From sequence record PX667085.1: 64,000 nucleotides of DNA. One strand, given 5' to 3'. The notes beneath the pieces are model-generated. The model saw only the letters and a program-made list of their open reading frames with translations, was not told the origin of the DNA and made no database searches. This document shows positions 9,395 through 54,948 of the stretch, piece by piece. Each line of letters begins with the position of its first letter. Position 1 is the stretch's first letter. Origin of the DNA: a phage. The translations under genes were made by a program, and so were the position numbers.

Positions 9395-9895
9395 ATGGCT
9401 AAAGTAGTAGATGAGTTTGATATGCTACGAGTCGATGAAGGACTGAAGCTTACTGTTTATCAAGACCATCTTGGTTATTGGACAGTCGGCATAGGACACC
9501 TTCTGACTAAAATAAAAGATAAAGCAAAGGCTATTCAAATCTTAGATAATCTTCTTGGTCGTAAGACTAATGGGGTTATCACAGAAAAAGAAGCCCGTCA
9601 AATCTTTGCTGATGATGTTGCAAAAGTGAAGAGAGACATAAAAAACAGTACTATCTTATCACCAATCTATGATAAGGTTAGTGATACTCGTAAATTGGGA
9701 ATAATCAACATGGTTTTCCAGTTGGGGTTAAAAGGTGCTGAAGGGTTTCAAAATAGCTTGACTTTAATCAGCAATGCATATTATACTCAAGCAGGTAAAA
9801 ACATGCGTAAAAGCCGATGGTATAGCCAGACGCCAAACCGTGCTGAACGAGTAATTAAAGTTCTGACTTCTGGAACTTTAGATGCTTACAACTAA
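9395..9895 (+). CDS. e: endolysin, T4 lysozyme family (muramidase)
   Basis: EMLRVDEGLKLTVYQD..YWTVGIGHLLTK...INMVFQ...KSRWYSQTPNRAERVI aligns by eye with T4 gene e lysozyme along its length. Confidence 0.9.
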   Translation: MAKVVDEFDMLRVDEGLKLTVYQDHLGYWTVGIGHLLTKIKDKAKAIQILDNLLGRKTNGVITEKEARQIFADDVAKVKRDIKNSTILSPIYDKVSDTRKLGIINMVFQLGLKGAEGFQNSLTLISNAYYTQAGKNMRKSRWYSQTPNRAERVIKVLTSGTLDAYN

Positions 9896-39834: not shown

Positions 39835-40203
39835 TTATTCAATGCAAGCATTATTTGCATCTTCAATTCTGTCTTTCACCCACTGAAGACGTAACGTGTT
39901 GGTATGACACGCCAAGTTTATACACTCTGAAAGGTAATCCATGCAATCCGCATTGAACGGAAGATTATAGTCCAGCCCTGCACATGTAAATTGTTTCCTC
40001 ATTTCATATTTCAAACGGTCCAACAAACTATCCCGCCATCTTCTATCTTCTTCTCTAGTTGTCTCACCAACAAAATCATTTACATAATCTACCAGACAAC
40101 CACATAAGCCACTCGTTGTGCGATTCATTGCAGGATAGTTGGCAATCCATGCTTTATAGAAGCGAAGCAATGTTGCACTGCTCAACGGAATACTATTTGT
40201 CAT
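39835..40203 (-). CDS. paralog-family protein F
   Basis: FYKAWIANY...SGLCGCL...LPFN...CH...LRLQWVKDRI. Confidence 0.6.
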   Translation of the reverse strand: MTNSIPLSSATLLRFYKAWIANYPAMNRTTSGLCGCLVDYVNDFVGETTREEDRRWRDSLLDRLKYEMRKQFTCAGLDYNLPFNADCMDYLSECINLACHTNTLRLQWVKDRIEDANNACIE

Positions 40204-40537
40204 TTTTCTCTCCTTCGTAATCCTGAATTCTATCTAGCACCCATTGTATACGATGTTTGTTTTTATGGCAAATAAGTTTTTTATGTTCGAAGGTGTATTC
40301 TTCATAACCACCTTCATTGAACGGGAAATTGTAATCTAATCCTGCACCAATAAACTGGGATTTCATCTCTTGTTGTAGACGAGGTAACAGTTCATCAGGG
40401 TATGTTCCCTCTACATACTTAATCAAACATATGCACAAACCACTCGTTGTGTGACCTTCTACCTCACCAGCAAACCAAGCTTTGTAAAACTTCATTAGAC
40501 GTAAGCTACTCAAGGGAACATTTTTACTCTCTTGCAT
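40193..40537 (-). CDS. paralog-family protein G
   Basis: FYKAWFAGE...SGLCICL...FPFN...CH...HRIQWVLDRI; tandem with F. Confidence 0.6.
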   Translation of the reverse strand: MQESKNVPLSSLRLMKFYKAWFAGEVEGHTTSGLCICLIKYVEGTYPDELLPRLQQEMKSQFIGAGLDYNFPFNEGGYEEYTFEHKKLICHKNKHRIQWVLDRIQDYEGEKNDK

Positions 40538-40559
40538 GACAATCTCCTCTCATCGTTAG

Positions 40560-42030
40560 CCATCTTTCATGGCAATCATCAATCACCAACATCATACGAT
40601 CAATCTTCGGCAATTACAATCGAATTATCATAGGGGATTCCTATCAATTATCCTATATATACCGATTATTTTTGACACCCCATTCTTGTATAAAAAGTAA
40701 CCCAAAATATCTACGGGGAGAGATTATTTCGACACACCCTGTTTCATGGCAATCACGGCAAGAATATCTAATAGAATCAATATGATATGGCAAAAATCAT
40801 GGCGTATACGTAAGAAGTGCTTAACGCGAATTTTCGGGCCGTCAGGTCCACGCAGCGACAATTCCCAAATATCATGCGAATGAGAATAATTATCATTCGT
40901 ATTCAATGACTTATGCAAGGCTCATGCCAACGTAGCGACAAGGTGGGCCACTCGATTATAAATCACACAAACACTTATTTATCAATGGCTTGGCAACTTC
41001 ATCATATGACGGAACAATGTCAACTAATCCCGCTCATGACAAGCAGACTATTATTTATATGAGAATGATTATTATTTAAACGTTTATTAACATAAAAACT
41101 AAAATAAATCAAGATTATTCTGATTTTATTTACGTTTAAGAGAAGATGCTCAACATCCTACCGGATCGCCGTTGGCAATCCTCGGATATTTACGCCCCCA
41201 TGATTAAGGTTTATCTCTTTCTTAGTGCTCAACATTCCCGCCCGTGGCGGTAACATTTCGCCCCCAAAATTATTGACTTTTATTCTATTATGTGCATAGT
41301 GTGCAATGTATCGGAATGATGATAATCATCCTCCCATTGCCCCCAATAATTATTGCCATGCTAATGATTTCATATTGTAACCATTACAATGATTATTGTT
41401 ATTGCGCTAATGTTATGATCTTGGTAATTACATATAATGCTAATAATAAGCCAGCGCAATAAGTGTAAGCGTCATTACGCTTGCAATTATTGCAAGCTAC
41501 GCAGTAACAAGAAATAACCATCACCGATGGTTATGATTGTTGGGGTGTAGTTGGCTTATTATTAGCTCGCTATGTGTCCGGCATAGCGTGCTAATGATGA
41601 TCCTGGGAATGATTCGTTTTGTAATGATTTCATTCAGTCACTATTATGGCAATAGTTATTATTTTAATGGTTTCGTTTGTTATTGTTCGTTAGTTGGTTG
41701 TTTTGTCGTGTTATCGTTATCTTGCTTAGTATTCATCATGGTTTGATTGTTTGTCGTTATCAATCATCTTGCTATTATTCCTTTGATTATGATTAGTTTG
41801 CTTATTGTTTTAGGTTGTTGGTTAGTTAGTTGTTGCGAACTGTTATCAACATTATAGTTATGCGCTTATATTGCATATATAATCATGTATAGATGATAAT
41901 GGTTATCATTGCACTAGAAAGGAGGTAAAAGGGTGTTTTTGATGGTTTGTTGTTGGTTGTTGATCGATTTTAACCGCTATAAATGGCTCTCTAACAGCCT
42001 GTTACCCTGGGAGGTATGGTTATTCGTTTA
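40560..42030. repeat. 1.4-kb non-coding palindrome- and repeat-rich region (candidate origin/regulatory hub)
   Basis: No convincing ORF; GAGAATrATTATyATT at 40882 and 41061, ATGATAATCAT-type palindromes, T/G-rich short repeats. Confidence 0.5.
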
Positions 42031-42111
42031 ATGGTTGATTAGCTCGATACCGCGATTTATTCAATTTTGTTCTGTGTCGGTTTTTCATAGGGGAAAGCTA
42101 TCAACATTGTT

Positions 42112-42154
42112 CGGGCAAAAAGAAAGGGCGCTTGGTGCGCCCCTTGTTTTGTTG
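42112..42154. terminator. bidirectional intrinsic terminator
   Basis: GGGCGCTTGGTGCGCCCC hairpin flanked by A- and T-tracts. Confidence 0.65.
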
Positions 42155-42158
42155 TCAA

Positions 42159-42578
42159 TTATAACGCTTCATAGATTGAGTAGATCCGGTTTGCCAGGTC
42201 ATTACGAAAGCGGAATTTTTCATCACGTTTGATCATCAGATCCTTAAAACCGCATTCTTTCAGTGCTTCATTAACTTTATGGCGGCAAACGTTCATATTA
42301 TCCTGCGCGTCACCAATAAACTTATTGCTGTGATGCATTGCTTTGATCTCTTCCTCTAATACCAGGGCAACTACACGGATCGGATCAAGCTGATATGCGG
42401 TAACATCCATGCGGCATTGTAAACGGCTTTTAACATCGTTTACCGGATATACTGCAACCTCTTCCCCGTCAACGTTCACGATAACCAATTTACCATCGAT
42501 TTCGAAGCCTTTGGCGGCGCTACCGTGACAAAAAGCGTTATCGAAGGAGTAAGCTGGATTATTTGATTTAATGTTCAT
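42159..42578 (-). CDS. hypothetical protein
   Basis: 139-aa ORF; promoter TTGACA within CCCCTATTGACAGGGG upstream. Confidence 0.55.
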   Translation of the reverse strand: MNIKSNNPAYSFDNAFCHGSAAKGFEIDGKLVIVNVDGEEVAVYPVNDVKSRLQCRMDVTAYQLDPIRVVALVLEEEIKAMHHSNKFIGDAQDNMNVCRHKVNEALKECGFKDLMIKRDEKFRFRNDLANRIYSIYEAL

Positions 42579-48444: not shown

Positions 48445-48666
48445 TTATTTTGTTACTACCATTTGGTACCCTGTTTCAATGTTAGTAAATACTGTTATCC
48501 CGTCCTGGCGTTCACTCATTAGCATACAAGGCGCTAACATCCTTTCTACTGCCTTGCACTCATTGTAAACGGCGGTTATGTCTCCTGCGGCCTTGTCTTC
48601 TGTGGTGAATGTATCGTTTATGTAAACTTGACTAGCGACAACGGCGACAATAGCGAAAGTGATCAT
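48445..48666 (-). CDS. hypothetical protein
   Basis: 73-aa ORF. Confidence 0.45.
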   Translation of the reverse strand: MITFAIVAVVASQVYINDTFTTEDKAAGDITAVYNECKAVERMLAPCMLMSERQDGITVFTNIETGYQMVVTK

Positions 48667-53333: not shown

Positions 53334-53501
53334 ATGACAAATACTACATTACACCTTATGCACTCATTGGGCTGGCAAGGCGGCACGGTGCACCAGGTAG
53401 CAAGCGCAACGGGCTTAAAGGTTGAAACAGTTCTCAACCTGGGCGATCATAAGGTGGAAGAGATAGATCATTTTGATACGTTCGCAAATGGTTATCTATA
53501 G
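53334..53501 (+). CDS. small helix-turn-helix DNA-binding protein (55 aa, Cro/XRE-like)
   Basis: TVHQVASATGLKVETVLNL HTH-like segment; own promoter; below ORF-table cutoff. Confidence 0.5.
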   Translation: MTNTTLHLMHSLGWQGGTVHQVASATGLKVETVLNLGDHKVEEIDHFDTFANGYL

Positions 53502-53602
53502 GCTTGCAGTGGCGGCGGGGAAAGCAAGATACCACCAGGGGCGCGGGGCGATATGTATTTTTGGTTAGGTGTCCTATCCTGGCAAGAAAACAAAAAATAA
53601 TC

Positions 53603-53631
53603 TTGACAAGCCCAGGGATCGGGCTTATACT
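53603..53631 (+). promoter_or_regulatory. near-consensus sigma70 promoter TTGACA-17-TATACT with no downstream ORF
   Basis: Hexamers read directly; next 750 bp have no convincing plus-strand ORF. Confidence 0.55.
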
Positions 53632-53850
53632 GTTTTACATACAGAAGAGGAAGCGCCACCCCACGGCGTAAAGGCGGGGCTAACATACCAGGGGCACTGG
53701 TTGGAAGGTTGATCGCCGGTAGGCTGGGCGCTATATATTTGTAAAGAAATGTAAAGATAAAATAATCGCTTGCTTTCCTGGCTGGATCTGTTATTCTTAT
53801 TACATGGCGAGGGGACACGGGAGCGCGAGACAAACACCACCCCTGCGCGT

Positions 53851-53964
53851 CATTCTCTAAATGAGAATGATTATCATTTACCTTATTGAATAAGAATCAA
53901 TCTCATTTATAAACTTAAATGCGAATCATTCTCATTTGCATTTCCACATGAGAACTCTTCTCAT
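53851..53964. promoter_or_regulatory. cluster of operator-like palindromes (Fur-box-like)
   Basis: CATTCTC-TAAAT-GAGAATG, GAGAATGATTATCATT, AATGCGAATCATTCTCATTTGCATT, ATGAGAA-CTC-TTCTCAT. Confidence 0.45.
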
Positions 53965-53980
53965 CCCCACCTGCATAAAT

Positions 53981-54188
53981 TTTTGTAAACTTTAAATTTT
54001 GCTTTTGTACTTTCATTTTTGTAAAAGCAAAAAAACTTTAAATACTGTGGGCGCGCAAAATTTTTAAAATTTTCCTTGACTTTTGAGTTTTGTTTTGTAT
54101 CTAACATTTTAAGATAATTTTCCTAAACTTTAAATTTTGGTTTTCAACTTTCACTTTTGTAAATTCTTAAAAAGTTTAAATAATTTGA
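53981..54188. repeat. two ~65-bp AT-rich direct repeats
   Basis: AAACTTTAAATTTTGsTTTT..ACTTTCAyTTTTGTAAA occurs at about 53981 and 54122. Confidence 0.5.
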
Positions 54189-54405
54189 GGGATTTTTGAG
54201 ATAATAGGTAGTGGAAATTTGAGATAACCTTTAATCTTATTGGTAGACCTTCAGGAACTCACCTAAATCGAATCCTAGTGATGCAAACTGAAAAAGATAA
54301 GTGTTTGTATAAGACAAAATAACAGGCTCTCTACGGTGCTGTAGGAGCCTTATTTCTGTGCTACAAAGTGACACCTTTGTTCTAAAAATGAAAAAAGTTA
54401 AAATA

Positions 54406-54948
54406 TCACAAATATCGTCTTTGCGGTATTTTGTCTGGGAAAAGTATTTCGATCAGTTTGTTATGATATTTGCCTAAAAGATTCTGCCCTTTCCAGGTGG
54501 CAGGGTTTAGCACCCCTGGTTCATACATCCCCATTCCAATTCCGTAAACCTTATCGTAGGGGCTTGCTTCAACAAACGTTTTGTATTGGTAAAGGTGTAA
54601 GTCTGCATACAAATCTGGATTCTGTACATATTTCAAGCATAAACCTCGCATAACAATACGCTCACGGTTCTCTTCCCATACGTTGTTATCAAAATCCGAC
54701 ACTGCCCTACCCATACGTTTGTAATAAGCTTGGATCTTCTCATCTTTCCGTATCAAACTATGAGTCAGAATAGCCTGTGCAGTGTTGTGGTCATTAAAAA
54801 GCAAAGCTTTACGCCACATCATGTATTGTTCGACACAATTAAATGTTTGATTGTAACCTGGTTCGGTTTCTGTAAAGGGTGCAATATACCAATTACTAAA
54901 CACATCTTTATGTGAAAAGAAGAATACATAATCATCAGTTATTCGCAT
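54406..54948 (-). CDS. NADAR-family (YbiA-like, DUF1768) protein
   Basis: VFFFSHKDVFSNWY, EQYMMWRKALLF and YGIGMG motifs. Confidence 0.7.
   Translation of the reverse strand: MRITDDYVFFFSHKDVFSNWYIAPFTETEPGYNQTFNCVEQYMMWRKALLFNDHNTAQAILTHSLIRKDEKIQAYYKRMGRAVSDFDNNVWEENRERIVMRGLCLKYVQNPDLYADLHLYQYKTFVEASPYDKVYGIGMGMYEPGVLNPATWKGQNLLGKYHNKLIEILFPDKIPQRRYL

Follow-up and report, generated by a model that had tools for sequence, protein, structure and literature searches.

Predicted genome ends and conserved Fur-type palindromes in a non-coding region of a Phapecoctavirus genome

The DNA considered here is a 64,000-nucleotide stretch of a phage genome (sequence record PX667085.1; hereafter the window) that belongs to Phapecoctavirus, a group of phAPEC8-like E. 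coli myophages of ~150 kb within the Stephanstirmvirinae, and the element in question is the non-coding gap between two of its minus-strand genes, at 40193-40537 and 42159-42578. The closest described counterpart is found in another member of the group, Schickermooser, for which a terminal repeat of 328 bp has been stated (Korf et al. 2019), and the existence of such a repeat in a close relative is therefore already known. With an exact end repeat of ~329 bp, its non-coding nature and its conserved boundaries, the direct terminal repeat (DTR) of Schickermooser and Phapecoctavirus resembles the concatemer junctions of the T7 type, and in both cases the first genes are read inward from the left end. 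To our knowledge, no counterpart has been described in T7 for the two symmetric Fur-type boxes and the IHF-like site at the centre of the repeat that are presented below, and no published dissection of a Phapecoctavirus terminal repeat was found in the literature searched.

Other described systems concern the palindromes that the gap contains. The Fur boxes of E. coli (mntH, iucA, fhuF), of 9-1-9 or 7-1-7 layout, share their length, symmetry and consensus with the phage palindromes, one of which also overlaps a -10 element; unlike them, the predicted phage boxes belong to a virulent phage, occur inside a terminal repeat, lack a conserved promoter in two of three cases and appear to prefer GAGAAT. 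In T5, Repeat Region 3 (Wang 2005; Davison 2020) comprises the DRC copies and palE-palJ, which are the same palindromes as the phapecoctavirus boxes. The calculated shear point of T5 first-step transfer, 9618, falls within the palE-palJ array at 9473-9637, and in the same analysis the palindromes are given no function and Fur is never mentioned (Davison 2020). In lambda, cosB and the IHF site I1 embody a concept that is also relevant here, namely a host DNA-binding and bending site located between the recognition and cut sites of terminase. It has also been reported that nohB and nohA, the Nu1 homologues of the cryptic prophages DLP12 and Qin, respectively, are preceded by strong Fur sites (25.3 and 22.3 bits), and that the nohA site is gel-shifted by Fur and had earlier been recovered by in vivo Fur selection (Chen et al. 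2007). These upstream sites of the K-12 prophages are among the strongest in E. coli. Our literature searches returned nothing that links Fur to phage termini, to cos, to the T5 palindromes or to the T5 injection stop, and the use of Fur at phage chromosome ends is not described in the searchable literature.

We estimate a probability of about 0.9 that the gap represents the non-coding terminal region (the concatemer junction) of Phapecoctavirus, containing a 329-bp DTR with its flanks and hence both physical ends of the genome. In the Schickermooser record (NC_048196.1), the first 329 bases are exactly the last 329, and they align to window positions 40822-41150 at 97% identity. WPEC4, sequenced in a separate laboratory, carries an exact 328-bp repeat at both ends that maps to 40823-41150, and several independent linear records start or stop inside the gap, at window positions ~40822-40831. 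In the present isolate the repeat (40822-41150) stands as a single copy in a collapsed assembly, delimited after those of Schickermooser and WPEC4; its assignment to this isolate by homology, at 97% identity, is a point against the proposed termini. The preliminary description of this region, which was made from the sequence without database searches, was right in considering it non-coding and rich in Fur-box-like palindromes, and missed the terminal repeat together with both genome ends.

The virion orientation is the reverse complement of the window, with the DNA starting at 41150 and ending at 40822. At the left end, the repeat (from 41150 on) is followed by a 284-bp leader and then by the first gene (40537 downward); at the right end, ~970 bp of non-coding DNA separate the last gene (42578-42159) and its terminator from the repeat, which ends at 40822. 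Both repeat boundaries, at 40818-40825 and 41147-41154, bear the same motif in the same orientation, GTGCT/YAAC (the slash standing for the boundary). The boundary reads GTGCT/TAACGCGA on the left and GTGCT/CAACA on the right, and it is kept in Phapecoctavirus, in the phiWec181 clade and in Justusliebigvirus. GTGCT/YAAC is a candidate terminase cut motif. A third copy of the motif is present at 41226-41233, where a second TGCTCAACAT at 41226 gives 41229 as an alternative right boundary in this isolate. The predicted repeat lengths across genera range from 329 to 344 bp. The ~80-bp indel-prone segment that precedes 41226 is absent from Schickermooser and ETEC-TG, a deletion for which recombination between the TGCTCAACAT repeats is the apparent cause. 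A perfect IHF core consensus on the plus strand, TATCAATGGCTTG (40980-40992), is centred exactly on the midpoint of the terminal repeat (40986), within a 16-nt island that is identical across genera; as a binding site for IHF it is suggestive only. With the termini mapped and a candidate cut motif identified, ~140 Stephanstirmvirinae genomes can be oriented and annotated correctly; many of them have been deposited with arbitrary starts or with spurious open reading frames (ORFs) in the gap.

The comparisons that support these statements were built on GenBank phage records, as scans of IMG/VR gave only three relatives and three unrelated pattern matches. A 1.8-kb query around the gap matched 76 phage records by megablast, nearly all of them Phapecoctavirus, the top one being ECO340P1 (97.7%). 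Ten gap sequences were aligned, representing three clades, i.e., core Phapecoctavirus, phiWec181/PsgM04F, and the Justusliebigvirus phages muut and inny. Genome-wide scans (~151 kb) combined the 64-kb window with the remaining ~87 kb, borrowed from ECO340P1. In the ten-sequence alignment, no ORF of at least 28 aa in the gap stays open across the clades. The two listed ORFs that the preliminary description had dismissed as spurious are indeed broken in relatives: a stop interrupts 41537-41746 in as close a set as three near relatives, and the phiWec181 clade and Justusliebigvirus have stops or frameshifts in 40724-40918. In most deposited annotations no feature is placed in the gap, the annotation of the phAPEC8 authors places a single terminator in it, and the records that do call genes there list 6-9 tiny hypothetical proteins. 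No tRNA was detected in the region, and its only tandem repeat is CAATCAT x3. Rfam was searched with the gathering threshold for the whole window and with a cutoff of E <= 1 for the two non-coding regions (the gap and an internal one at 53.86 kb, see below), and the only matches were two chance ones to snoRNAs.

Matches of at least 14/19 to the Fur 19-mer GATAATGATAATCATTATC occur at 7 positions in 40540-42158, out of a total of 17 in the window. The best reaches 15/19, in agreement with the match counts in the preliminary description; the five sequences quoted there are all exact in letters and position, and the same applies to AAGCGTCATTACGCTT at 41467 and GCAATTATTGC at 41483. In 300 dinucleotide shuffles of the region, 0.24 +/- 0.50 matches are expected, and the observed count is ~30-fold higher. 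The most over-represented 7- and 8-mers of the region are of the ATGATTAT, ATGATAAT, ATGGTTAT and ATGGCAAT type. The recurrence of the same 16-mer family at 53863, also announced there, is real and larger than noted, comprising four palindromes with a 29-bp period, and this array defines the motif as AATGAGAATnATT(A/C)TCATT. Using a 9-1-9 score (matches out of 18 to the consensus AATGAKAATNATTMTCATT), the complete list of sites with at least 16/18 in ~151 kb is 40879 (18), 41058 (16), 41892 (16), 53860 (18), 53889 (16) and 53918 (17), and the probability that two of these six fall in the repeat by chance is ~7e-5. The idea that the Fur matches are a by-product of base composition could appeal to the AT-richness of the region and to a Fur consensus that is itself AT-rich and degenerate. 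It is effectively refuted, since none of the 300 shuffles reaches the observed count, the strong sites are restricted to two loci genome-wide, and the boxes are conserved islands in a repeat with only 54% identity between genera (the window versus Justusliebigvirus muut).

Three of the strong sites lie in the gap. Box A, AATGAGAATAATTATCATT (40879-40897; 18/18), is located 57 bp from the right genome end and is identical in Justusliebigvirus, in the phiWec181 clade and, as a 19-nt run, in the T5-like phage HildyBeyeler. Box B, TATGAGAATGATTATTATT (41058-41076; 16/18), lies 74 bp from the left genome end, and its Justusliebigvirus counterpart, TGATAATGATTATCA, forms a perfect 7-1-7 Fur box. Box C, GATGATAATGGTTATCATT (41892-41910; 16/18), is kept in all clades and covers the -10 and start region of a predicted promoter, P_C. 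A weaker conserved palindrome, AATCAAGATTATTCTGATT (41107-41125; 14/18), is found 25 bp inside the right repeat boundary. Overlapping 6-bp registers have been reported for all footprinted Fur sites of E. coli; the scores at registers -6, 0 and +6 are 13, 18 and 14 for box A and 10, 18 and 14 for the first array box, and the flanking registers of boxes B and C are weak. The distances are also kept across the clades, with 56-60 bp from the left cut to box A, 181-197 bp from box A to box B, and 88-90 bp from box B to the right cut, the last counted between motif starts. In two genera, boxes A and B stand out as conserved islands whose spacing to both repeat boundaries is maintained. The site at 41315-41330, on the other hand, is deleted in phAPEC8, the phiWec181 clade and Justusliebigvirus, and it is therefore probably not functional.

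The phage motif corresponds to Fur boxes described in several bacteria. It equals the Fur-box consensus published for Xanthomonas campestris, AATGAgAATcATTctCATT, and a Fur box of E. faecalis, TGAGAATGATTCTCA, and it is 84% identical to the Fur consensuses of Shewanella and B. subtilis. The first array box (53858-53876) coincides in 19/19 positions with the Fur site in the mntH promoter of E. coli, and a 31-nt query from the array retrieves these 19 nt without mismatch from ~960 E. coli chromosomes, where they adjoin the MntR box and lie 45-63 bp upstream of mntH. For mntH, which Fe2+-Fur represses, a Fur site of 19.9 bits has been listed at -56 (Chen et al. 2007, Table 4; Patzer and Hantke 2001, as cited therein). 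The identity with mntH concerns the first array box, not boxes A, B and C. At the level of sequence and conservation, the palindromes behave as Fur-type 9-1-9 operators held in place by selection. The consensus sites of Lrp, ArgR, KdgR, CRP and RcsB were rejected for the motif, as each appears to differ from it in half-site spacing or core bases.

The same elements are found in phages of other groups. In T5, palE-palJ and the DRC copies (9468-9637) are Fur-type 9-1-9 boxes, with AATGAGAATCATTATCATT scoring 18/18, and T5 matches window positions 40884-40904 in 20/21 positions over a 21-nt run that includes ATTATCATTCGTATTC. The same palindromes are present in T5, HildyBeyeler, ESCO30 and EC104. 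A weaker E. coli match to the motif pointed to the cos region of a lambdoid prophage, and the 48.5 kb of lambda itself contain a single site of at least 15/18, GATGATAATCATTATCACT (48450-48468), which is 34 bp away from the right cohesive end. Its equivalent in the K-12 cryptic prophages is the Fur site that precedes nohA and nohB. This position is presumably next to cosQ. Lambdoid phages and Phapecoctavirus are therefore alike in having a strong Fur-type site within tens of bp of the packaging cut; lambda differs in its cohesive ends, its single site and its lack of a terminal repeat, and no role of the lambda site in packaging or entry has been described.

This distribution bears on whose sites these are. 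An operator array for a phage regulator, one of the three functions initially suggested for the region, would imply that a dimeric protein encoded by the phage (the small terminase subunit or an early regulator, for example) binds the palindromes, their likeness to Fur boxes being a coincidence. The consistent use of GAGAAT/ATTCTC in place of the GATAAT/ATTATC of E. coli fits such a protein, as do the strict 29-bp period of the array, which is typical of dedicated operator or iteron arrays, the fixed distances of boxes A and B from the terminase cuts, suitable for a packaging recognition protein, and the many small ORFs of unknown function beside both loci. Nevertheless, T5-like siphoviruses and lambda share the motif, and tblastn with all the T5 left-repeat proteins (A1, A2, dmp and the others) gave nothing below E = 0.02 in the ~151 kb of this genome. 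No regulator shared by these unrelated phages was detected. Moreover, in box B of Justusliebigvirus the change from GAGAAT to GATAAT yields the perfect 7-1-7 box, as expected if selection preserves Fur specificity, and the motif is identical to a chromosomal Fur site, that of mntH. Pfam and PHROGs searches with the flanking genes and the 55-aa ORF at 53334 identified no DNA-binding domain, only families of unknown function and a NADAR protein, and tblastn with an E. coli Fur sequence detected no Fur homologue in the phage. We regard a phage-encoded binding protein as doubtful. As the motif is common to unrelated phages (T5-like and lambda) in which no shared phage protein was detected, the evidence points to a host factor as the one that would bind the sites.

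Among the three functions suggested initially, an iron-responsive Fur control element is the one best supported at the sequence level. Box C, ~750 bp inward of the right end, coincides with a conserved predicted sigma-70 promoter, and its layout looks like that of a classical Fur-repressed promoter. P_C (TTGCAT-N18-GATAAT) is predicted at 41871-41900 on the plus strand. Its -35 hexamer is invariant in nine of the ten aligned genomes (TTGAAT in TSP7_1), and its -10 is GATAAT in Phapecoctavirus and AAGAAT in Justusliebigvirus. The spacer is constant in length and variable in sequence, which is the signature of a real promoter. The putative transcript would run for ~245 nt down to a bidirectional intrinsic terminator (42123-42145) that closes the last right-arm gene (42578-42159, minus strand) and may also end the transcripts from P_C.

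In the proposed mechanism, host Fe2+-Fur, which is abundant and pre-existing, would bind the boxes as soon as the DNA has entered the host. Classical repression by Fur at box C would render the plus-strand non-coding transcript iron-responsive, and at boxes A and B a host protein would be loaded beside each DNA end. There, Fur might gate promoters inside the repeat; alternatively, it might help to form a bent nucleoprotein complex for the two cuts made by terminase, as IHF does at lambda cosB. Boxes A and B are placed symmetrically, next to both cuts and both physical ends and with a possible IHF bend between them, and this would fit a role in the nucleoprotein organization of the termini, during either packaging or entry. 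In comparison with lambda cosB, no terminase-binding R sites were identified in Phapecoctavirus, and its IHF core has no statistical support.

We consider it slightly better than an even bet that host Fe2+-Fur occupies these sites. Several observations count against this reading. The phage motif favours GAGAAT where the E. coli consensus has GATAAT, although GAGAAT-type sites do exist in E. coli, at mntH. Regarding promoters, box A overlaps a TTGCAT-N18-GATAAT promoter in core Phapecoctavirus only, none was found at box B, and box C is the only one with a promoter conserved across genera; sigma-70 promoter-like sites are not enriched in the region (14 versus 10.1 expected), and neither is the IHF core pattern in the window (8 versus 7.1 expected). 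As for the P_C transcript, it contains no conserved ORF, its folding gives no signal (z = -0.8) and it has no match in Rfam, and the plus-strand U tract of the terminator is not conserved in TSP7_1 or in Justusliebigvirus. Finally, we know of no published host-factor screen that flags fur as essential for T5 or lambda, and any role of Fur is therefore likely modulatory. No transcriptome was found in the literature searches.

It could be argued instead that the right-end spacer serves to encode a small RNA or a micro-protein, the DNA motifs being secondary. The conservation of P_C would agree with this, as would a strong Shine-Dalgarno-like AAGGAGG followed by GTG at 41920-41935, an ORF of 32 codons, and a terminator-ended block (42016-42122) that is kept as far as Av-05 and some Klebsiella phages. 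However, in-frame stops interrupt the 32-aa ORF in ETEC-TG, Schickermooser, TSP7_1 and the phiWec181 clade, it is frameshifted in Justusliebigvirus, and the Shine-Dalgarno-like sequence is not conserved. The folding and Rfam results given above tell equally against an RNA, and no covariation was detected in the ATAG..CTAT element. Such a product is thus unlikely to be the reason for the spacer.

The preliminary description also contemplated a replication origin. The gap is certainly AT-rich (GC of 0.346 in 41001-42000 versus ~0.38-0.42 in the flanks), displays a local change of sign in the skew, and contains many inverted repeats or hairpins, and P_C could prime replication. Conversely, there is no DnaA box (TTWTNCACA) in 40000-42300, the boxes are 179 and 834 bp apart with no regular spacing that would resemble iterons, and the AT-richness is modest. 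The skew blip at 41-42 kb coincides with a T/G-rich tract and the cumulative trend resumes after it, so that the GC-skew check, once run, revealed no inflection at the genome level. Furthermore, the terminal repeat and its flanks fully account for the gap, and DNA at 53.6-54.3 kb is more origin-like. That the region is or contains an origin is accordingly improbable.

The internal non-coding region contains the array, four Fur-type palindromes (53860-53965) that score 18, 16, 17 and 14 of 18 and begin at 53861, 53890, 53919 and 53948, exactly 29 bp apart. The array is homologous to the DRC/palE-palJ cluster of T5-like phages (77-94% over 22-95 nt), and the interval 53.86-54.23 kb has a pair of TTTGAGATAA in common with copies 2 and 3 of T5 direct repeat A. 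Both in T5 and in Phapecoctavirus, the arrays belong to a large non-coding block tied to the terminal repeat. Placed on the Schickermooser genome, the array is ~13.98 kb away from the right end, which is 9.2% of the length; for its T5 counterpart the value is 7.9%. At this distance of ~9%, the array might mark a T5-like entry pause in a myovirus devoid of A1/A2. Against such a pause, DnaA boxes, DRD repeats and A1/A2 are absent from Phapecoctavirus: no DnaA box was found in either non-coding region, and short-word blastn gave no match to DRD. In T5, by comparison, the DnaA boxes are paired and the repeat is of 10 kb, features that Phapecoctavirus lacks.

A broader proposal would give host Fur the part of a conserved cis-acting partner at the ends of coliphage genomes, where its loading on the DNA that enters first, or on the packaging substrate, would control DNA entry, end handling or terminase cutting. 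The basis of this proposal is the occurrence of strong Fur-type boxes 34-90 bp from the termini of lambda and Stephanstirmvirinae and of a cluster at the first-step-transfer pause of T5, and we advance it only tentatively. What appears to be new in the present analysis is the recognition of the conserved palindromes of the repeat as probable Fur boxes, the apparent equivalence of the phapecoctavirus palindromes to T5 palE-palJ, and the likewise terminal position of the single strong Fur-type site predicted in lambda. If Fur does occupy the phapecoctavirus sites, a virulent phage would read the iron status of its host, or borrow an abundant host DNA-binding protein, at its chromosome ends, and a testable identity would be provided for palE-palJ at the T5 injection-stop region and for the unexplained Fur site beside lambda cos.

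The surroundings of the array have features of their own. Within a block of minus-strand genes, window positions 53590-53850 hold two GC-rich plus-strand units driven by promoters near 53604 (TTGACA-N17-TATACT) and 53772 (TTGCTT-N17-TTCTTA). In blastn searches, the conservation of these units extends to Vequintavirus and to phages of Klebsiella, Cronobacter, Pectobacterium and Erwinia; they have no Rfam or tRNA match and probably represent small RNAs. Positions 53970-54230 form an AT-rich block with long direct repeats, AAACTTTAAATTTTG..TTTTGTAAA, besides the TTTGAGATAA pair. With a promoter, a G-rich transcript, periodic palindromes and AT-rich direct repeats, the interval 53.6-54.3 kb looks more like an origin than the terminal gap does. 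Directly upstream of the internal non-coding region lies the gene for the NADAR-domain protein (54406-54948; Pfam E = 8e-36).

Returning to the terminal region, the left-end unique leader (40538-40821, minus strand) lies between the repeat and the first gene (40537-40193), and its block 40538-40690 is kept across genera. The first two genes past the left end (39835-40537; 114 and 122 aa) are paralogues, both matching the family phrog_2510. The right-end unique spacer (41151-42122) comprises an indel-prone part (41151-41290), a conserved hairpin-rich block (41438-41620), the T/G-rich tract (41640-41860) and a conserved block (42016-42122). The latter holds one of the only two copies in 64 kb of a plus-strand twin element, TCATAGGGGAttcCTATCAA (= TCATAGGGGAnnnCTATCAA), at 40628-40647 and 42085-42104. 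The two copies, in the same orientation, bracket the terminal region ~195 bp to the left and ~935 bp to the right of the repeat; both are conserved in Justusliebigvirus, with no RNA covariation. Records labelled as Campylobacter, Acinetobacter or Pseudomonas phages are ~81-98% identical to these coliphages over the searched regions, and such host labels on near-identical phage records are probably unreliable. The T/G-rich tract, which is of low complexity (52% T, 10% C), keeps ~97-100% identity between Phapecoctavirus clades whose similarity elsewhere is ~80%, and Justusliebigvirus has tandem ATGAAATGATTAC repeats in its place.

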